Shown here piece after piece: positions 3,608-39,829 of a DNA stretch of 64,000 bases. How positions within the stretch are numbered: position 1 is the first letter of the stretch; each line of letters opens with the position of its first letter. The position numbers and the translations under genes were made by a program. The notes under the pieces are model-generated. The model saw only the letters and a program-made list of their open reading frames with translations. It ran no database searches and was not told the origin of the DNA. The stretch is taken from the sequence record OP292222.1, one strand, 5' to 3'. Origin of the DNA: Escherichia phage Esco_phi_B-01.

Positions 3608-4618
3608 ATGACTCGTACTGAATACATCAATGCCTTTACTAAGTATATCACTGACAATACCCCTCCATTAACCCCATATATGGTAATAGTTTCTAATATC
3701 AATAAATGGGTAGACCAAATTGATGATGCATTATCGCGCTGTTTCAAAGCTGAAATAGAAAAGATTGCAGGGCGTTTGTTTATTCCTGATATCGTAGATA
3801 CATTTAAAGGTTCTCGACTGCTTTCTCGACTGGTCAATAAGGACATCCTTTCTGAGTTCGGTAAAGAGAAATATCCGGGTTCTAACCATGTTGTTAGCTA
3901 CAAATGGTTTGGTGATACCATAAAAGATTATGTCAAAATTAAAGGTATGGACCCTAGTAGTTTATTTCCGCAACGTTGGGTTAGCGAATTCAAGGCTAAC
4001 TCTGCATTAATTCTCAAAGCGGCCTCTAAAACTATAGTTTCCGGTGATTGTCGTACTATTCACCCGATGGCTAATTGCATGATTAAAACAAATAGTTATA
4101 AAGGAAAAGCTATTATTTCTGTTATTTGGTCGCCTAATAGGAAACCTAAAGATGATGCGGAAGTTGTAAAGTATCAAGATATTGCTTACGATACCTTGAA
4201 TACTATCGAACAAGCCTTAGCTTTGATGGATACAGTAGAGAAATATGAGACCCAAGAAGTTAAACACCACTTAGGCTGGAAAGGATATGAAGTTTTAGTA
4301 ACAGTTCGCGAAATCAAATGGCCTGTTCCAAAAACTGACGCTGAAATTTACCAAGAAAAATGTGAGGAAATTGTGAATACTGATAAAGAGCCTGCTACAT
4401 TAGAAGACTTGATTAACGACTTGAACAGCCCTATCATGGCCCATACACCAATTACTAAATCCAAGTTACCGGAAATCGTTGCCTTAGAAAAAGCGTATAA
4501 AGATGCCCTTGCTATCAACAAAAAACTGACCGGACAATATACCGCTGCCAAGAAACTTTGGGAAGAGTCTACCAATCGTTTAGACCGTCTTGAACAGGCT
4601 CTGGAGCTGTTGAAATGA
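3608..4618 (+). CDS. hypothetical protein (336 aa)
   Basis: ORF; start at ATG preceded by ctGAGGAGaatatc; track start 3548 lies inside promoter. Confidence 0.6.
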   Translation: MTRTEYINAFTKYITDNTPPLTPYMVIVSNINKWVDQIDDALSRCFKAEIEKIAGRLFIPDIVDTFKGSRLLSRLVNKDILSEFGKEKYPGSNHVVSYKWFGDTIKDYVKIKGMDPSSLFPQRWVSEFKANSALILKAASKTIVSGDCRTIHPMANCMIKTNSYKGKAIISVIWSPNRKPKDDAEVVKYQDIAYDTLNTIEQALALMDTVEKYETQEVKHHLGWKGYEVLVTVREIKWPVPKTDAEIYQEKCEEIVNTDKEPATLEDLINDLNSPIMAHTPITKSKLPEIVALEKAYKDALAINKKLTGQYTAAKKLWEESTNRLDRLEQALELLK

Positions 4619-4926
4619 AACAGCGTTTAGCTGAAGATATTGCTTCAGCATCTAATACCGGTTTATTGAAATTTATTAAAGCCGAGGATGTTGAAGTTGA
4701 ATTGGTTGGTAAAATTCATGGTTGTGATGATTATGGTGATGCCGTTAATTGGGATGCAGTAATGGCTATGGTCGCACGACGAGAACAAGCTTCTAAGAAT
4801 GTTCCTAACTGTCCTAAGTGTGGCACAGAACAGGTTCAATTGGTCCATTGGCAAACCAGTAATCTTCGATATAAATGCCGCCATTGCAAACACAAATTTG
4901 AGCGAGACGAAAATGGCAAAGCGTAA
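4615..4926 (+). CDS. zinc-ribbon protein (CPKCG ... CRHCKHKF)
   Basis: ORF; paired CxxC motifs near C-terminus. Confidence 0.55.
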
Positions 4927-5149
4927 AGAATATGTAGAGGCTGCCGATAAGGCAGTCCGCGAACTTACTCTGGCTTATTATAAAGAGCATGGTAAATTTC
5001 CGGACAGTTATTCAGTATTGAAATCTGCTTTAACTCGTTCGTATAATAATATACTATCTGATGTGTATGATTTAAAATACGAACACCTAGAAAAATATGG
5101 AACAGAACTTGACCGTTCTGAAGCATTCAAACAAGTATTAGGAATTTAA
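4913..5149 (+). CDS. hypothetical protein (78 aa)
   Basis: internal ATG of track ORF 4799..5149; overlaps end of upstream gene. Confidence 0.4.
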
Positions 5150-5150
5150 A

Positions 5151-5414
5151 ATGTTTAAAGTTTATGGGTACGATTCAAATATTCACCGTTGTGTTTTCTG
5201 TGATAATGCCAAACGTCTACTTGATGTTAAGAAGCAACCTTACGAATTCATTAACGTGATGCCGGAAAAAGGTGTATTTGATGATGAGAAGATTGCTGAA
5301 CTCTTGGCTGCTCTTGGACGTGAGTCTCAAGTAGGTTTGACCATGCCCCAGGTATTTGCTCCAGACGGAACTTCTATTGGCGGCTTTGACCAACTGCGAG
5401 CATATTTCAAATGA
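5151..5414 (+). CDS. nrdC: NrdC-type thioredoxin/glutaredoxin
   Basis: near-identity recalled to T4 NrdC N-terminus (MFKVYGYDSNIH.C..CDNAKRLL); CxxC active site. Confidence 0.9.
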   Translation: MFKVYGYDSNIHRCVFCDNAKRLLDVKKQPYEFINVMPEKGVFDDEKIAELLAALGRESQVGLTMPQVFAPDGTSIGGFDQLRAYFK

Positions 5415-9856: not shown

Positions 9857-10116
9857 AACCTATATCCACCACCCTCGCTTATGAAGGTCTCGGATTTTTC
9901 TTAATAGATAACTGTATGGATGTTGAGTTTGTTTGTGGTGAGACTTCTTTAGTATGGAAGTCTCATATTTCCAAATACAACCATCGGGATTATCCGGAAC
10001 TTTTTAAAGAATTTTGCGGATATATGTCCGAACATGGATGTACTGATACAATTTCTTATCCCGAGTTCATACAAATCCTTGAAACAGTATTTCAGGCTTA
10101 TTGCTTACTCCGTTGA
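9853..10116 (+). CDS. hypothetical protein (87 aa)
   Basis: ORF, ATGA overlap. Confidence 0.5.
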   Translation: MKPISTTLAYEGLGFFLIDNCMDVEFVCGETSLVWKSHISKYNHRDYPELFKEFCGYMSEHGCTDTISYPEFIQILETVFQAYCLLR

Positions 10117-10182
10117 TGCTTTAAACGGGTCTCCAAATACTATGATATAATAGACCTATGATTTGAGTTATCTGAGGTAACA

Positions 10183-10740
10183 ATGACCGAAATTAAACTG
10201 ACTAAAAATAACTATGTAAATAATAAGGAGCTTCTGAAAGCCATTACCCAGTGGAAAACGGAACTCCGAGAAAATACCGACCCTAATAAAATAGTTCGTC
10301 AGAACGACGTTATCGGCTTGGCTATTATGCTCATTGCTGAAGGCCTTTCTAAGCGTTTCAACTTCTCCGGATATACCCAATCTTGGAAGCAAGAAATGAT
10401 TGCTGATGGAATCGAAGCTTCTATTAAAGGCCTTCACAACTTCGACGAAACAAAATACGACAACCCACATGCATATATCACTATGGCTTGTTTTAATGCC
10501 TTTGTTCAGCGTATCAAGAAAGAACGTAAAGAAATGGCAAAGAAATACAGCTACTTCGTCCATAACGTTTATGACGCTAATGACGACGACATGGTAGGTA
10601 TCGCAGATGAAACTTTTATCCAGGATATTTACGACAAAATGACTCAGTACGAAACCTCTTTAGTTAAAGCGCCAGGGTCTGATAAGAGCGCCGAATCTAA
10701 AGTTGGTGAGCTGGATTTTTTATATGGAACTCAAGATTAA
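10183..10740 (+). CDS. 55: late-transcription sigma factor gp55
   Basis: extensive similarity recalled to T4 gp55 ([10 protein letters not shown]..., [41 protein letters not shown]). Confidence 0.93.
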
Positions 10741-10951
10741 CCTGGTAGGCCTTTTAGAAGAAGTAGATGGAGAGTATTCGGCAATTCCTTATGTTCTTAA
10801 AATGTATCTTAAGGATATTGCCAAGCTTCCTATTGTAATAGACCCAAAACACCCTGATTCGGTAGAAATTAAAGCTGAAAAAGGAACATTAACTTATAAC
10901 TATCACGTTACCGACGAAGATTTTTATATAAAACTGAATTACAAGGATTAA
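10724..10951 (+). CDS. hypothetical protein (75 aa)
   Basis: ORF overlapping 3' end of gene 55. Confidence 0.4.
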
Positions 10952-10952
10952 T

Positions 10953-11264
10953 ATGCAAAGCACCGACATTTCTCAATTGACTGAAGAGCAAATTGAAGAA
11001 GCCCAGAAGCGTTTAGAAGAGAATAATGCTAAAGAAGCCGCTTCTCAAGCTGCCAAAATTCTTAAAAAGAATGCCCGTGAAATTAAGCGTCTTAATACCC
11101 ATGCTCAGGGCGCTGTTCTTGAAAACAATTTCGAAGCTTACAAATATGCTATAATTAAATTACGTGGTATTTACCGTCAACCAACTACTGACGAAATCGT
11201 TAGAGTTATGTGGGAAACTACGCGTAAACAGATTTGGGAAATTATCAATGGCGCTAGTAAATAA
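10953..11264 (+). CDS. hypothetical protein (103 aa)
   Basis: ORF. Confidence 0.5.
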   Translation: MQSTDISQLTEEQIEEAQKRLEENNAKEAASQAAKILKKNAREIKRLNTHAQGAVLENNFEAYKYAIIKLRGIYRQPTTDEIVRVMWETTRKQIWEIINGASK

Positions 11265-11448
11265 ACCCTTTAAACGGCTTCTTATTGGAGCCGCCTTCAG
11301 ACTTCGCTCATACGGTAATATTTGTATTAAGCAGACTGAAACCGAATATAAAATGGTTGGGCAGTATTCCGATGAAATTTTTCGGATTGAGCCTGTAGCC
11401 AAGGTTTGGGTGGATTCACATCAACTTAAGAAGTGGTGGCAACGATGA
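11248..11448 (+). CDS. hypothetical protein (66 aa)
   Basis: ORF; weak SD. Confidence 0.3.
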   Translation: MALVNKPFKRLLIGAAFRLRSYGNICIKQTETEYKMVGQYSDEIFRIEPVAKVWVDSHQLKKWWQR

Positions 11449-11603
11449 TAACATGGACTGCCGGTTAATGAATGACGAATACGAAAAAGTTTAAGAGGTG
11501 TATTATGACTATTGATGATGTAGATATTCTTACTTCCGACGAATTAAAACGATTGGGTAATATATTTCAAGACGAACATCCTGATTTTTAAGAGGTCATA
11601 TGA

Positions 11604-11777
11604 ATGACGAATTCGACGGATTTTGATAAGATTAAATCTGACAAAAATGAGATGATACTTAAATTTGAAGCTGCTCGTATTAAAGCGGAAAATGAAGGTA
11701 CTATTACCTATAAGCCTATCAAGTTCAGGTCTTCTCATGAACCTCTGTACGGGGTATTAATTGGTAAAGGAGCTTAG
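11604..11777 (+). CDS. hypothetical small protein (57 aa)
   Basis: ORF with SD aagagg; stop lies in terminator hairpin. Confidence 0.35.
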   Translation: MTNSTDFDKIKSDKNEMILKFEAARIKAENEGTITYKPIKFRSSHEPLYGVLIGKGA

Positions 11778-11790
11778 GCTCCTTTTTTGC
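11767..11790 (+). terminator. rho-independent terminator (aggagc-ttag-gctcct + T6)
   Basis: GC stem, tetraloop, T-run. Confidence 0.7.
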
Positions 11791-11817
11791 TTTATATTCG
11801 GATGATAAAATGAATTT

Positions 11818-12435
11818 ATGAAATACATCACATACCTGACAATATATTCCGGGACTAAGCTTCCACCGTTTTATATAGGGTCCACCACTTTAGAGAAGCA
11901 TTTGAATGGATACCACGGAAGTGTCCTTTCTAAAGCGTATAAAGAAATCTATAAAAACGAGCTTTTAGAGCATCCTGAACTATTTGACTCATGTATTGTA
12001 AGTGAACATCCCACAAGAGAAGAGGCTTTAGAAGCTGAAAGAATGTACCAGTTAAGAACTGATGCAGCTCAAAATCCTTTATTCTTTAATAGGGCTATTG
12101 CCGCCCCTAAAGGGTTCTTCGGGCTTTCGCTACCTAAAGAGCATCACCCTCTTTACGGCTCTCATAATGCCAAAGGGTATATTCATTCCTATAATCCTGT
12201 TACATTAGAACAGACCTTTGCACCTACGGTCCCTGAAGGATATGTAGAAGGTCGTTCTCCTAATTATAAAGCATCTAGTCACAATAAGGGCAGGAAGTGG
12301 TATAATAACGGAATAGAACATAAACTGATTAATCCGTCTAATATTCCTGATGGATGGGTCAAAGGCAAACTTCCGGGCTCGGCTTCTAAAGCCGCCTCTA
12401 AAATGTGGGAACGAATACGTAATGAAAATTCTTAA
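11818..12435 (+). mobile_element. GIY-YIG (Seg-like) homing endonuclease gene
   Basis: N-terminal TIY ... FYIGST motif pair; C-terminal KGRKWYNNGIEHKLINPSNIPDGWVKG typical of Seg endonucleases; sits in the slot where T4 has alpha-gt. Confidence 0.75.
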
Positions 12436-13444
12436 TACAGGCGACTGGCACCTTGGAGTTAAGAACGACGACCCTTGGGTCCAAAACATTCAATTGACCG
12501 GCATTAAAGATGCTATCAATTATTCTAAAGCAAATGGTATTACTGTATGGATTCAATACGGTGATATTTTTGATGTCCGTAAAGCCATTACTCATAAGTG
12601 TATGGAATTTGCTCGGCATATTTCAGATTTGCTTAAAACCAATGGCATCACCATGTATACCATTGTTGGTAACCATGATGCCCACTACAAAAACACCCTA
12701 ACTCCGAATGCTGCTTCTGAAGTTCTGGGTAAATATGACCATATCAAGGTTATTGAGAAACCTACTACGGTTAACTTTGATGGCACCGAAATTGATTTGA
12801 TTCCATGGATGTGTGAAGAAAACACGACTGATATCATGGACCATATCAAAAATACCACAGCAGATTTCTGTATTGGTCATTGGGAATTAAATGGTTTCTA
12901 TTTCTATAAAGGAATGAAATCTCACGGTTTAGAACCTGATTTCCTTAAAAAGTATAAGCAAGTTTGGTCAGGCCACTTCCATACTATTTCTGATGCAGCA
13001 AACGTCAAGTACATTGGTACTCCATGGACCCTTACTGCAGGCGATGAGAACGACCCTCGTGGTTTCTGGATTTTCGATACCGAAACTCATAAAATGGATT
13101 TCATCATTAACGAAACCTGTTGGCATCGTAAGATTCATTATCCTAATGCGACTATCGATTACAAAGATTTTACAAATATCGCAGTTCGTGTTATAGTCGA
13201 TAAAATCGATGACGGCCTTACTAAGTTTGAATCAGAACTTGAAAAGGTTGTTCACTCTTTACGTATTGTGTCTAAGGTAGATAATAGTGTTGATATCGAT
13301 GATTCTGAAGAGGAAGATGAAGTTAAATCCCTCTTGGATATGATGTATGATTATATCGACGCCCTTCCTGATGGCCACACTGAAGAAGACGTTAAAGCCC
13401 TTAAGACTATGGCCGCACAACTTTATAATGAGGTTACACGATGA
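12422..13444 (+). CDS. 47: recombination nuclease subunit gp47 (Mre11/SbcD-like)
   Basis: MKILNTGDWHLG phosphoesterase motif; synteny upstream of gp46. Confidence 0.9.
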   Translation: MKILNTGDWHLGVKNDDPWVQNIQLTGIKDAINYSKANGITVWIQYGDIFDVRKAITHKCMEFARHISDLLKTNGITMYTIVGNHDAHYKNTLTPNAASEVLGKYDHIKVIEKPTTVNFDGTEIDLIPWMCEENTTDIMDHIKNTTADFCIGHWELNGFYFYKGMKSHGLEPDFLKKYKQVWSGHFHTISDAANVKYIGTPWTLTAGDENDPRGFWIFDTETHKMDFIINETCWHRKIHYPNATIDYKDFTNIAVRVIVDKIDDGLTKFESELEKVVHSLRIVSKVDNSVDIDDSEEEDEVKSLLDMMYDYIDALPDGHTEEDVKALKTMAAQLYNEVTR

Positions 13445-13704
13445 CTTTAGATGAATTCAAAAAATCGGGACTTGAACTGGAACACGACTGTATAGTTATT
13501 GACGATGATGGCCAACCTAGTACAATTAAGTTCTGGTTTGAAGCCGTGAGCACTCGTGATACCGGCGAGCTTATTAAAGTTTATGTTGCTACCGATTGGG
13601 CTGTAGAATTTAGCTTTAATGTAATGGTAGATGATACTCCAGAAACATTAATTCATATGGCTGAATCATGCATCAAGGATGCGTATAACGATGAAGACTT
13701 TTAA
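13441..13704 (+). CDS. hypothetical protein (87 aa)
   Basis: ORF between 47 and 46. Confidence 0.5.
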   Translation: MTLDEFKKSGLELEHDCIVIDDDGQPSTIKFWFEAVSTRDTGELIKVYVATDWAVEFSFNVMVDDTPETLIHMAESCIKDAYNDEDF

Positions 13705-15373
13705 GTTAAAAAAAGTAACGTATAAAAATATTATGTCGGTAGGGCAGCAGCCCATTACAATCCAACTTGACAAGGTCCAAAAGACCTTAGTCACTGGTAA
13801 AAATGGTGCAGGGAAATCAACATTCCTTGAAGCTGTAACATTTGCTCTGTTCGGTAAGCCTTTTCGTGATGTTAAGAAAGGGCAGTTGATTAACTCAAGT
13901 AACAAGAAAGACCTTTTGGTCGAACTGTGGATGGAATATGATGGCAAAGAATACTATATCAAACGCGGGCAAAAACCCAACGTTTTTGAAATCTCTTGTG
14001 ACGGTGAACGTCTTGATGAATCTGCCAGCAGTAAAGACTTCCAAGCGGAATTTGAACAGCTTATCGGAATGTCCTATGCAAGCTTCAAACAAATTGTCGT
14101 ACTCGGCACAGCTGGATATACCCCTTTTATGGGCCTATCCACTCCTGCAAGAAGAAAACTCGTCGAAGACCTCTTAGAGGTTTCTGTATTAGCGGATATG
14201 GATAAGTTAAACAAATCTTTGATTCGTGAGACTAATAGCCAAATCCAAGTAATAGACGTTAAGCAAGATTCTATTACCCAACAAATTAAAATTTATAATG
14301 ACAACGAAGAACGTCAACGTAAATTATCTGGCGAAAACGCTGCCCGTCTACAATTAATGTATGATGAGCTCGTTAAAGAAGCCAGGACTGCGAAGGCGAG
14401 CATAGAATCCCTGACTGATGAATTACTCAATGTTATCGTAGATGATGACCCTAGCGACTCCATGAGTGACCTGAGTAATAAAGGATTTGCAATCAAAAAT
14501 GATATGGCGACCTTTACAAAGGTGGTTAAGTTATACGAAACTGGTGGTCACTGCCCTACGTGTATGCAAGGGTTAGAAGAGCATGGTAATATCCTTACTA
14601 AAATTAAGGATAAAAACTTTGAGCTTCAAAAATCTTTGGATAAGATTAATGAGCAATACCAAGAGCTCAAGCTCATTAAAGACCAAGTAACCGAACAACG
14701 CAATAAAGCGTTGGCTATTAAATCTCAGATAGCTACTCATAAGCAGCAAGCCATTACTGCTGTAGAGAAAGCCAAAAAGGTTAAGGTATTAATTGACCAA
14801 GCAGCAGCTGAGTTCGTAAGTAATGCCGAAGAGATTGCTACGCTTCAAGCAGAGCTTGATAAAATCGTCTCTACCAAATCGTCCTTGGTAATGGAAAAAT
14901 ATCATCGTGGAATTCTGACAGAAATGTTGAAGGATACTGGTATTAAAGGTTCCATTATTAAGAAATACATTCCTATCTTTAATAAGCAGATTAATTCTTA
15001 TTTGAAGATTATGGAAGCGGACTACGTCTTTACCCTAGACGAAGAATTCAATGAGACGATTAAATCACGTGGACGTGAAGACTTTAGTTATGCTTCATTT
15101 TCACAGGGTGAGAAAGCACGTATTGATATAGCACTTCTTTTTACATGGCGCGATATTGCTTCTAAGGTATCAGGTGTTAATATCAGCACGTTAATTCTTG
15201 ATGAAGTTTTTGATAGTGCAACTGACGCTGAAGGCGTTAAGAGCATTGCAACCATCTTGAATAGCCTTGAGGATACGAACGTGTTCATTATCTCTCACCG
15301 AGACCATGACCCACAAGCTTATGGCCAACATCTTCAAATGAAGAAAGTTGGGCGATTCACGGTGTTAGAATGA
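13691..15373 (+). CDS. 46: recombination ATPase subunit gp46 (Rad50/SbcC-like)
   Basis: Walker A GKNGAGKST, long coiled coil, C-terminal signature; similarity recalled to T4 gp46. Confidence 0.92.
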   Translation: MKTFKLKKVTYKNIMSVGQQPITIQLDKVQKTLVTGKNGAGKSTFLEAVTFALFGKPFRDVKKGQLINSSNKKDLLVELWMEYDGKEYYIKRGQKPNVFEISCDGERLDESASSKDFQAEFEQLIGMSYASFKQIVVLGTAGYTPFMGLSTPARRKLVEDLLEVSVLADMDKLNKSLIRETNSQIQVIDVKQDSITQQIKIYNDNEERQRKLSGENAARLQLMYDELVKEARTAKASIESLTDELLNVIVDDDPSDSMSDLSNKGFAIKNDMATFTKVVKLYETGGHCPTCMQGLEEHGNILTKIKDKNFELQKSLDKINEQYQELKLIKDQVTEQRNKALAIKSQIATHKQQAITAVEKAKKVKVLIDQAAAEFVSNAEEIATLQAELDKIVSTKSSLVMEKYHRGILTEMLKDTGIKGSIIKKYIPIFNKQINSYLKIMEADYVFTLDEEFNETIKSRGREDFSYASFSQGEKARIDIALLFTWRDIASKVSGVNISTLILDEVFDSATDAEGVKSIATILNSLEDTNVFIISHRDHDPQAYGQHLQMKKVGRFTVLE

Positions 15374-37450: not shown

Positions 37451-38200
37451 ATGCCTACTATTAAAACTAGCGATGAATTTGAGTTAAAGGTTTACAACCG
37501 CCGCAAACACACCAAAGCTTCTGCTTATAAACGTGGTAAGGACTTCAATCTGTCTAGTAAGTATGTTCGTAGACTTCTCGAACAAAAAGTGTGCGCTTAT
37601 TCAGGCGAGTACTTTGATGAAAATTCAGTTAATGATAAGATTTCATTTGAACGTTTTAACAACGATATCGGCTATATTGAGGGTAATGTAATCCCAGTTA
37701 AAGTTAAGTATAACAGCTTACGTGCCGATTTGTCCCTTGATGAACTGAAACGTGCCCAGACTCGTTTAGCAGTTCGTATTTCAGGTAGTTCTAAAATGCC
37801 TAATAGTTTTAAAGTTACCCCTGATAATTATTATAAAATCCGTAAAATCGTTAAAAATATAAAAGATACCCAAAGAGGTCTTAAAAAACGTGAAAAACGT
37901 CTTAAAGACCTTATTAAATCGGGAGCTACTGATAAGACTCCTTCTGTTATCGCGGTTAAGGCCCGTATCCACGGTTCTAACGCTTCAATCGGTACTATGG
38001 AAAAAGGTCTTAAATCTTTAATTGGTGGGCCTGACTGGCGCGTCAAGTTTAAATTGTCTGAAGCAGAAACGCGTTACGATATGTATGATAAAATTATTCA
38101 AGGTCTGGAGCGTTTAGAACACCTTTCTTTTATTGACAAATTGAAGTTGAAAAAAGGTCTTCCGCTGAATGCTTCAATTTTTTCACTGATTAGAGGTTAA
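37451..38200 (+). CDS. hypothetical basic protein (249 aa); Srd-like by position upstream of dda
   Basis: synteny only. Confidence 0.5.
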   Translation: MPTIKTSDEFELKVYNRRKHTKASAYKRGKDFNLSSKYVRRLLEQKVCAYSGEYFDENSVNDKISFERFNNDIGYIEGNVIPVKVKYNSLRADLSLDELKRAQTRLAVRISGSSKMPNSFKVTPDNYYKIRKIVKNIKDTQRGLKKREKRLKDLIKSGATDKTPSVIAVKARIHGSNASIGTMEKGLKSLIGGPDWRVKFKLSEAETRYDMYDKIIQGLERLEHLSFIDKLKLKKGLPLNASIFSLIRG

Positions 38201-38204
38201 CGTG

Positions 38205-38501
38205 ATGTACTATGCATACGTATTAGTTCACAAGGACAAAGACGGGTATGAAATTCCATTAGAAGATGCCGGTGAAGTGACTTTGTATTCGACAAAGATT
38301 GGAGCCGACACTGCTTTAGAGGCTTATGAAATCTCAACAAAAAGATATCTTCGGCTTGGACGCCTTGAAACAGTGTGCACGCCAAGAAAATGGTGGTTTG
38401 ATAAGTGGGAAACTAAAACAGTTTTTCCTACCAAAGAACGGGCCCGAGAATTAAAATTGATTTTAGACACTTTATATGTTAAGCGAGTAAAATTGGCATG
38501 A
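38205..38501 (+). CDS. hypothetical protein (98 aa)
   Basis: ORF immediately upstream of dda. Confidence 0.5.
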   Translation: MYYAYVLVHKDKDGYEIPLEDAGEVTLYSTKIGADTALEAYEISTKRYLRLGRLETVCTPRKWWFDKWETKTVFPTKERARELKLILDTLYVKRVKLA

Positions 38502-39829
38502 TTACATTTGAAGACTTGAATATTGGGCAACGGACGGCCTTTAAAGAAATCATTGAAGCTGTTAAACGACGTAAGGGCGAATGGATTACATTGAATGGTC
38601 CTGCGGGTACAGGTAAAACGACCCTTACTAAATTTATCCTTGACCACTTAGTCAAGAATGGCGAACTCGGAGTTATTTTGACCGCACCTACGCACGCGGC
38701 CAAGAAGGTATTGTCGAAACTCGCAGGCCAAGAAGCATCGACAATCCACCGAATCTTAAAGATTAACCCGACTACATACGAAGACCAGGATATTTTTGAA
38801 CAACGTGAAGCTCCTGATTTGAGCAAATGTAATGTTCTTGTGGTCGACGAAGGCTCAATGATTGACGGTAAGTTGTTTAAGATTATCGAAGCATCGGTTC
38901 CACCATGGTGCACTGTACTGGGGATTGGCGACCGAGCTCAGTTACAGCCAGTAGAACCTGGAAGTGATGGAAGTCCTCAGTTGTCTCCATTCTTTACCCA
39001 TCCTAAAATTAAACAGCTACACCTTACTGAAGTAATGCGTAGTAATGCTCCTATCATTGAGGTTGCTACTGAAATCCGTAATGGTGGATGGTTCCGAGAT
39101 TGTATATTCGAAGGTCACGGTGTCCATGGTTTTAAATCTCAAACGGCTTTAAAAGATTTTATGATGAATTATTTTTCCATCGTAAAAGATGCTGATGCCT
39201 TGTTTGAGAATAGGATGTTTGCTTATACAAATAAATCAGTTGAAAAACTGAATAGTATTATTCGTAAAAAGCTTTATGAAACCGATGCACCTTATATCAA
39301 GGGCGAAATCCTCGTGATGCAAGAGCCTTTTATTAAGGAACTTGAATATGACGGTAAGAAATTCTCTGAAACCATTTTTAATAACGGCCAGATGGTTCGT
39401 ATTTTAGATGTGAACCACACCTCATTGTTCTTGTCTGCCAAGGATGTAGGCACTCGCCAGATGATTAATTACTGGGACCTCCAGGTTGAATCTGTTGATG
39501 AGGATGACGAGTACTACGTAGAACACTTGAAAGTTATTGATGAGGCTTCAGTTGAGAAGTTCCATTATTTCTTGGCTAAGGTGGCTACTGAGTACAAGGC
39601 CATGCGTGGGACTGGTAATAAACCTAAGTGGGCTGATTTCTGGAAAGCCAAGCGAATGTTCACTAAGGTCCGAGCTCTTCCGGTGAGCACTGTTCATAAA
39701 TCACAGGGCCTTACTGTCCAAAACAGTTTCATCTATACTCCGTGCATGCACATGGCTGATGCGAATTTAGCTTCACAGCTGGCTTATGTTAGTATTACCC
39801 GTGCTCGTACTGATGCCTATTATGTTTGA
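38498..39829 (+). CDS. dda: Dda DNA helicase (SF1B)
   Basis: Walker A GPAGTGKTT, Walker B LVVDEGSM, C-terminal SF1 motifs; similarity recalled to T4 Dda. Confidence 0.92.
   Translation: MITFEDLNIGQRTAFKEIIEAVKRRKGEWITLNGPAGTGKTTLTKFILDHLVKNGELGVILTAPTHAAKKVLSKLAGQEASTIHRILKINPTTYEDQDIFEQREAPDLSKCNVLVVDEGSMIDGKLFKIIEASVPPWCTVLGIGDRAQLQPVEPGSDGSPQLSPFFTHPKIKQLHLTEVMRSNAPIIEVATEIRNGGWFRDCIFEGHGVHGFKSQTALKDFMMNYFSIVKDADALFENRMFAYTNKSVEKLNSIIRKKLYETDAPYIKGEILVMQEPFIKELEYDGKKFSETIFNNGQMVRILDVNHTSLFLSAKDVGTRQMINYWDLQVESVDEDDEYYVEHLKVIDEASVEKFHYFLAKVATEYKAMRGTGNKPKWADFWKAKRMFTKVRALPVSTVHKSQGLTVQNSFIYTPCMHMADANLASQLAYVSITRARTDAYYV

Follow-up and report, generated by a model that had tools for sequence, protein, structure and literature searches.

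Directly in front of gene 47 of Escherichia phage Esco_phi_B-01 stands an open reading frame of 205 codons, and the locus raises the question of what this ORF encodes, whose place it occupies and how it arrived there. We analysed a 64,000-nt stretch of the phage DNA (OP292222.1), referred to below as the window. The window is that of a Dhakavirus, a JS98-like T-even phage, and its closest DNA match over positions 10000-14000 is Ec2-ASingh (97.7%). The gene order, in the sense of the T4 minus strand, is 55, a-gt.5, a-gt.4, a-gt.3, a-gt.2, the ORF, 47, 46.2 and 46. The features of the locus are listed in Table 1, where the ORF is already named as a homing endonuclease gene (HEG), for the reasons given below.

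Table 1. Features around the gene 47 start, in window coordinates.
Feature	Position	Strand	Basis
Intrinsic terminator after a-gt.2, backbone	11766..11790	+	Stem 11766-11785, then T run; scan
T4-type middle-promoter-like site	11786..11811	+	MotA box TTTGCTTTA 11786-11794, 11-nt spacer, -10 TAAAAT 11806-11811
Foreign (mosaic) block relative to JS98/JS10-type backbone; putative homing/co-conversion tract	11815..~12712		HEG and first ~290 nt of gene 47
SegE-like GIY-YIG homing endonuclease gene (HEG), free-standing	11818..12435	+	ATG start, 205 aa; profile, fold, SegE alignments
N-terminal GIY-YIG catalytic domain (aa 1-100)	11818..12117	+	TIY10, Y19-I-G21, G31-Y32-x-G34-S (Seg signature), R67, E74, N91
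C-terminal repeat 1 (aa 121-146, YIHSYNPVTLEQTFAPTVPEGYVEGR), SegE-type beta-hairpin module, putative DNA-binding	12178..12255	+	phmmer, BLASTP colinearity with SegE
C-terminal repeat 2 (aa 159-184, RKWYNNGIEHKLINPSNIPDGWVKGK), SegE-type beta-hairpin module, putative DNA-binding	12292..12369	+	Aligns to SegE FWVNNGAINKLIQPDGIIPDGFIKGR
Gene 47 (gp47, Mre11/SbcD-like recombination nuclease subunit)	12422..13444	+	phrog_100, E 2e-134; annotated orthologues

The locus upstream of gene 47

Gene 47 starts at the ATG at 12422, from which the protein begins MKILNTGDWHLG, and the same start is conserved in JS98, QL01, G28 and T4 gp47. The HEG and gene 47 share 12422..12435, so that the 14-nt overlap described in an earlier, sequence-only reading of the window was confirmed. 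A longer gene 47 from the ATG at 12350 (12350..13444) was rejected as an artefact. In the RefSeq record of IME08 (NC_014260; locus L008, 2162-2779), the endonuclease ORF is unannotated and gp47 was given a spurious 27-codon N-terminal extension. This unannotated endonuclease is 98.5% identical to the 205-aa protein. No paralogue of either HEG domain was found elsewhere in the window.

The sequence-only reading had placed the ORF in the alpha-gt slot, and the gene orders of the relatives do not bear this out. T4 has a-gt.2, mobB, a-gt, 47.1 and 47. JS98, JS10 and EcWhh-1 have a-gt.2, 47.1 (144 nt) and 47 with no a-gt, and in QL01, NC-G and IME08 the order is a-gt.2, HEG and 47. VR5 has no HEG at the locus, and no 47.1 is annotated there. 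In the Tequatrovirus G28, a-gt.2 is followed by a-gt, a 207-aa HEG homologue and 47. Because G28 has both a-gt and the HEG homologue, the slot is that of 47.1, and the compared sequences indicate that the HEG alternates with 47.1 and not with a-gt. Replacement of a-gt by the HEG was rejected on the same grounds, together with the lack of a-gt between a-gt.2 and 47 in Dhakaviruses. An origin of 47.1 as a HEG remnant was also dropped, since no similarity was detected in the alignment of the window, JS98 and QL01.

Homing endonuclease genes have a hot spot in the interval from 55 to 46. T4 carries mobB (37885-38679) between a-gt.2 and a-gt, and G28 has, besides the one upstream of 47, a second 'homing endonuclease' (4559-5413) between 46.1 and 46. 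The spacer between a-gt.3 and a-gt.2 (window 11468-11600) contains a short unit in variable copy number (TAATGAATGACGAA...TTTAAGAGGT), with three copies in the window, two in JS98 and NC-G and one in QL01. With the extra unit a 28-codon ORF arises at about 11510-11596, preceded by a Shine-Dalgarno sequence, AAGAGGT.

The HEG is not universally conserved at this position, as the comparison with relatives lacking the insertion (JS98, JS10, EcWhh-1 and VR5) made clear. It is present in QL01, IME08, NC-G, IME540 and Ec2-ASingh. Among the Dhakavirus records that cover the region, about nine have a HEG here (five of this type and four of a variant with a different, longer C-terminus) and a dozen or more have 47.1, whose presence in about a dozen phages beyond JS98, JS10 and EcWhh-1 was judged by coverage. 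The HEG was found upstream in only 3 of the 35 gp47 loci from IMG/VR. The gene is free-standing, intergenic and sporadic among close relatives, as Seg-type genes are.

At least 94 phage records contain a homologue that covers at least 80% of the protein. Full-length homologues (47-98% aa identity) stand directly upstream of gene 47 at every locus inspected, namely in Dhakavirus, Tequatrovirus, Mosigvirus AV115, Biquartavirus L9-6 and Klebsiella phage KPV15. Adjacency to gene 47 in other Klebsiella phages and in Erwinia phage FBB1 was taken from feature labels only, and the homologue of Serratia phage LC53 was listed alone, outside the comparison of neighbours. QL01 gp060, NC-G QBP35672, G28 gp061, AV115 WPK35329, L9-6 APU01849 and the proteins of Klebsiella EI and KP185 are orthologous and in the same locus, within the same range of identity. 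The window copy is identical to none of these relatives, the best values being 98.5% aa (IME08/IME540) and 97.3% nt (Ec2-ASingh), and those of 005, KIT01, AV115 and L9-6 differ by longer, different C-terminal extensions. EcWhh-1, which is HEG-less at gene 47, has a paralogue (locus L063, 1498-2175) that shares the Seg-type N-domain (67% identity over aa 3-118) but not the C-terminus, directly upstream of the topoisomerase gene 39, which is the position of T4 mobA. The fixed gene 47 locus of the full-length homologues, and the other C-terminus at gene 39, suggest that the DNA-binding tail tracks the locus. No published description of a HEG at the 47.1/47 locus was found in the literature searched, whose coverage was partial. 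The locus is new to the Seg family, and the kind of system is already known.

Nuclease domain and C-terminal repeats of the ORF product

The conservation of the protein was analysed using 120 aligned sequences, which were also used for the Pfam counts, out of 248 homologues from the database search. The two-part GIY-YIG motif noted in the sequence-only reading is present as TIY (aa 8-10) and FYIGS (aa 18-22), and both parts are nearly invariant across the 120 homologues, as are Y32, G34, E74 and N91. The N-terminal ~105 aa of the homologues are highly conserved, with Y6, Y10, G12, P16, Y19, G21, Y32, G34, E48, F56, R67, E74 and N91 invariant or nearly so. With regard to the catalytic residues, Y10, Y19, E74 and N91 are invariant or at least 90% conserved, and R67 is ~90% conserved. 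The position of R27 of I-TevI is occupied by K27 in the window protein and by K or R in most, not all, homologues. Since T4 SegA-E are likewise without R at this position, the absence of an invariant Arg may be a Seg trait and not a defect.

The Pfam GIY-YIG family (PF01541) matched the protein below threshold, with 17 bits against a gathering cut-off of 22.6 (E 0.0073), and sub-threshold matches were obtained for 27 of the 120 homologues (best E 2e-4). Within the GIY-YIG superfamily, the Seg-type domain of T4 forms a divergent branch. Because of the sub-threshold match, evidence from the fold and from Seg-specific profiles was required to settle the domain. The AF2 model of the 205-aa protein (mean pLDDT 87.5) has the GIY-YIG alpha/beta fold, a three-stranded sheet with flanking helices, and the structural matches in BFVD are GIY-YIG/Seg-like homing endonucleases. 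When the HMM of the N-terminal domain was compared with the T4 GIY-YIG proteins, SegE (25 bits) and SegG (22 bits) scored best, followed by SegD, SegB, SegA and SegC, and no match to I-TevI, I-TevII, SegF or EndoII was obtained. By hhalign, the domain aligned to the SegA-E profile with a probability of 95.7% (E 9e-9), and the value against the single I-TevI sequence was an insignificant 1.7%. The window protein carries the Seg-type signature YIG-x(5-8)-(D/N)GYxGS ... E ... YN. In Seg proteins, YIG-x(5-8)-(D/N)GYxGS replaces the R-x3-H of I-TevI, and this would account for the low Pfam score as well as for the 'missing' arginine.

Other searches were less informative. A single-sequence scan of NCBIfam gave nothing relevant, and the Pfam and NCBIfam scans otherwise gave only spurious YaiA matches. 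[quoted passage not shown] NUMOD3 (Pfam PF07460) occurs in 70 of the 120 aligned homologues, whose C-termini vary, and no match to it was obtained in the window protein at E<=10, where only a vestigial NUMOD3 start, 'HPLYGSHNAKG', is kept. The profile search for GIY-YIG and NUMOD domains that had been suggested earlier thus gave the former, through Seg profiles and the fold, and not the latter.

The Seg-type character assigned earlier to the C-terminal segment was upheld and is specifically SegE-like. The C-terminal 100 aa match both tandem repeats of SegE (CYTNGTKNIFIKPGELVPEGFVKG and FWVNNGAINKLIQPDGIIPDGFIKGR) with a phmmer E value of 2e-11. By BLASTP, 198 aa are colinear with SegE at 28% identity (E 3e-11), and both proteins have 205 aa. 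Strands were predicted at aa 122-125 and 132-135 in repeat 1 (pLDDT ~95) and at aa 160-163 and 168-171 in repeat 2. The two predicted hairpins (pLDDT ~90-95) are followed by a terminal helix.

The window protein shares with T4 SegE its length and colinearity, the Seg-type N-domain with the YIG...(D/N)GYxGS signature, and two C-terminal hairpin repeats of the form 'xW/YxNNG..k.I.p..iP(D/E)G(F/W/Y)vKG(R/K)'. Both genes are free-standing, co-oriented with their neighbours and directly upstream of a DNA-metabolism gene. The differences are also clear. The identity is only 28%; SegE lies in the hoc.1/inh-uvsW region upstream of uvsW, whereas the window gene lies upstream of gene 47 in place of 47.1; repeat 1 of the window protein is degenerate (YIHSYNP as compared with CYTNGTK in SegE); and an extra helix is present at aa 191-203. 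SegB terminates in the same IPEGWFKGR motif that is found in repeat 2. The profile of the N-domain matches SegG, SegD, SegB, SegA and SegC, in the group that CDD names 'GIY-YIG_SegABCDEFG', but SegA-D have C-termini of the NUMOD3/HTH type, and SegF has no detectable similarity to the window protein. I-TevI (PDB 1LN0/1MK0, 1I3J) is intron-encoded, unlike the window gene, and its zinc finger and HTH are absent from the window protein, which gave no sequence-level significance with it and does not conserve its R27. From these comparisons, we consider the ORF product to be a free-standing Seg-type GIY-YIG endonuclease, of which T4 SegE is the closest characterised relative.

Signals around the upstream junction

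The window is identical to JS98 and QL01 through the terminator and the promoter-like site up to position 11814 and diverges from there onward, so that the junction is placed at 11814/11815. The terminator is the same in HEG-less JS98 and in QL01, and an equivalent one is annotated after a-gt.2 in G28. The promoter-like site is likewise conserved in JS98 and QL01. Being common to HEG-less phages, both are features of the backbone. The sequence-only reading had taken the terminator as a sign that the gene was acquired separately. The terminator itself is real, but it lies left of the junction and is uninformative on acquisition.

The pattern TGCTTYA-N10-13-TANNNT matches 11788-11811. The window contains 10 matches to it as compared with 1.95 expected, and none of 100 shuffled sequences reached 10. 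The matches on the + strand include those at 11788, 15564, 43755, 48484 and 53238, and, taken together, the 10 matches can serve to map candidate MotA-dependent promoters of the phage. Promoter function at the site before the HEG is suggested by analogy with the T4 middle-promoter consensus. The HEG ATG lies 6 nt past the -10 element, and transcripts from this middle promoter would therefore begin about at the ATG. No clear Shine-Dalgarno sequence was found for the HEG, and the late-promoter motif TATAAATA occurs only three times in the window and nowhere near the ORF. A hairpin sequestering the ribosome-binding site around the HEG start was not supported, as the fold was no better than that of shuffled sequences (z = -0.57), and sigma-70-like sites within the ORF were at chance frequency (7 against 6.7 expected). 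A cascade of mini-ORFs overlapping the HEG start (ATG 11802, ATG 11810) was dropped as chance, because it is not conserved in QL01.

Most free-standing HEGs of T4 are transcribed from middle or late promoters, and their translation initiation regions are weak or missing (PMC2988022). The lack of clear translation signals at the window HEG would fit the poor signals of these T4 genes. The initiation region of gene 47 is inside the last HEG codons, and in JS98 it is inside 47.1. Since the HEG lies between a conserved middle promoter and gene 47 and contains the initiation region of the latter, a clean deletion of the HEG would be constrained.

The mosaic tract, the proposed homing and other explanations

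The left flank of the HEG (11618-11811) has no mismatches to JS10 and eight to QL01. In gene 47, 54 of the 69 mismatches between the window and JS98 are in nt 9-291 and those beyond are sparse, and the dS value is 1.22 for nt 1-300 as compared with 0.097 for nt 301-1020. In nt 1-100 of gene 47 the window agrees with the alleles of HEG-bearing phages (QL01, IME08, NC-G and Ec2-ASingh), and in nt 120-300 it differs from all compared phages, the donor being absent from the sample. By this pattern of sequence, the window phage looks like a JS98/JS10-type genome that received ~900 bp by homing with co-conversion. Part of the gene 47 tract could be ordinary mosaicism. The evidence in these sequences for the mobility proposed earlier is the presence/absence polymorphism together with the gene 47 mosaic tract, not the terminator.

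Short patches of HEG type, at nt 38-100 or 38-48 of gene 47, occur in EcWhh-1 and L013, both without the HEG, and show repeated exchange at its 5' end. Among Tequatroviruses, the first 120 nt of gene 47 in HEG-bearing G28 depart from those of its nearest HEG-less relatives only at nt 9-18. The tract is asymmetric, with ~290 nt on the right and none detectable on the left, and this favours a cut at the 47.1/47 junction or to its right. The evidence is weak, since ~50 nt of the left flank carry no information and the true donor lies outside the sample. The dN/dS values of the HEG against QL01, NC-G and IME08 are 0.02-0.05 for the whole ORF including the catalytic domain, which indicates strong purifying selection on a functional gene.

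Variants of the HEG (251-256 aa) were observed in 005 (locus L003, 1539-2294) and KIT01 (locus L010, 2309-3079). They share the first ~177 aa with the HEG, have a different, longer C-terminus, and go together with a third allele of gene 47 nt 1-330, which is strongly divergent. The two changes together may represent a specificity switch. In Ec2-ASingh (locus L005, ~2240-2500), the terminator and the HEG are ~190 bp further apart, and the first ~70 nt of its HEG derive from a paralogue (MFIVYLTIYGGDKLPPFYIGSTS type), indicating recombination between paralogous seg genes.

Our main reading, to which we give a probability of about 0.8, is that the ORF is an intact free-standing member of the Seg family, expressed at a low level, that homes into the 47.1/47 locus; its cleavage, target and mode of expression are inferred. 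The N-terminal ~100 aa would act as the GIY-YIG nuclease, and the C-terminal ~85 aa, with the two SegE-type hairpin repeats and the terminal helix, would bind DNA and set the site specificity. In a mixed infection with a 47.1-bearing relative, the enzyme would cut the HEG-less genome between 47.1 and the first ~100 nt of gene 47, and the break would then be resected. Repair copied from the HEG-bearing genome would replace 47.1 with the HEG and co-convert the 5' part of gene 47, the 5' end of which is the presumed target and immunity region. The cut site is proposed by analogy: SegE cleaves RB30 at its empty hoc.1-uvsW site, with a homing efficiency of ~100% and with co-conversion (PMC2330249), and for other free-standing HEGs of T4 the cut lies within the neighbouring conserved gene or close to it (PMC2988022).

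As a speculation, the conserved core GACTGGCACCTTGGAGT, which encodes Mre11 motif I (DWHLG) and is flanked by allele-specific substitutions, is a plausible recognition core. A T-to-C change at nt 10 of gene 47 is seen in the HEG-bearing alleles of Dhakavirus and Tequatrovirus alike. It is improbable that the HEG is specialised on the DNA encoding motif I (GDWHLG) at the gene 47 start and that the HEG-bearing alleles escape through the clustered substitutions at nt 9-21 and 38-97, the change at nt 10 among them. If this were true, the targeted gene would encode the very nuclease that resects homing-induced breaks, and the HEG would disable the break-processing enzyme of a competitor while needing its own copy. 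The extreme mosaicism at the 5' end of gene 47, with the patches in EcWhh-1 and L013, would then record repeated cutting and the evolution of immunity.

An active nuclease of this kind could also serve mainly for competition between phages, by marker or partial exclusion of HEG-less relatives through cutting of their essential gene 47, with homing as a by-product and self-propagation secondary. The presumed target does cover the codons for Mre11 motif I, at the N-terminus of a nuclease important in recombination, and T4 Seg enzymes underlie the exclusion of T2 markers (PMC2988022, PMC2330249). However, competition is not truly exclusive of homing, as one cut yields both outcomes, and the sporadic distribution (3/35) and the patches of mosaicism in EcWhh-1 and L013, which have no HEG there, suit a selfish element that cycles in and out better than a competitive weapon that has become fixed. 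We regard competition as the main role as improbable.

A domesticated or catalytically dead Seg derivative, kept for the initiation region of gene 47 or the continuity of its transcript, or as a DNA-binding regulator, is less probable still. HEG-less relatives express gene 47 behind 47.1, so that the ORF is dispensable for 47, even though the 14-nt overlap, the lack of a visible separate Shine-Dalgarno for 47 and the tendency of embedded expression signals to favour HEG retention (PMC2988022) would agree with such a role. The variable canonical Arg and the sub-threshold Pfam match could be taken as signs of lost activity, but active T4 SegA-E have the same 'missing Arg' signature, Y10, Y19, E74 and N91 vary little or not at all across the 120 homologues, and the low dN/dS extends over the catalytic domain.

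The annotations of this gene family vary among hypothetical, 'HNH endonuclease' and 'homing endonuclease'. The PHROGs assignment is phrog_10820 (E 2e-92), which is labelled 'HNH endonuclease', and the same product name is given in many RefSeq records, among them those of QL01 gp060, G28 gp061 and 005 gp177. There is practically no chance that these labels are right for the window ORF, since no Pfam HNH family was found in its protein even at E<=10 or in any of the 120 homologues, and the fold and profiles are those of GIY-YIG/Seg. The label is a systematic misannotation of the phrog_10820 family, contradicted by the Pfam and fold evidence.

Reading the ORF as a homing Seg-family endonuclease corrects this widespread misannotation, as 'HNH endonuclease', as 'hypothetical' or, in IME08, by omission. 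The natural pairs with and without the HEG (QL01/IME08 and JS98/JS10) grow on the same E. coli hosts, and make homing and the mapping of the target directly testable. Beyond the locus, the mosaic and the annotation, the findings are ordinary T-even biology. To the Seg family they add a HEG, apparently active as judged from its sequence, at 47.1/47, outside the characterised Seg and Mob sites of T4, and this HEG would account for the local mosaic of gene 47 in Dhakaviruses.
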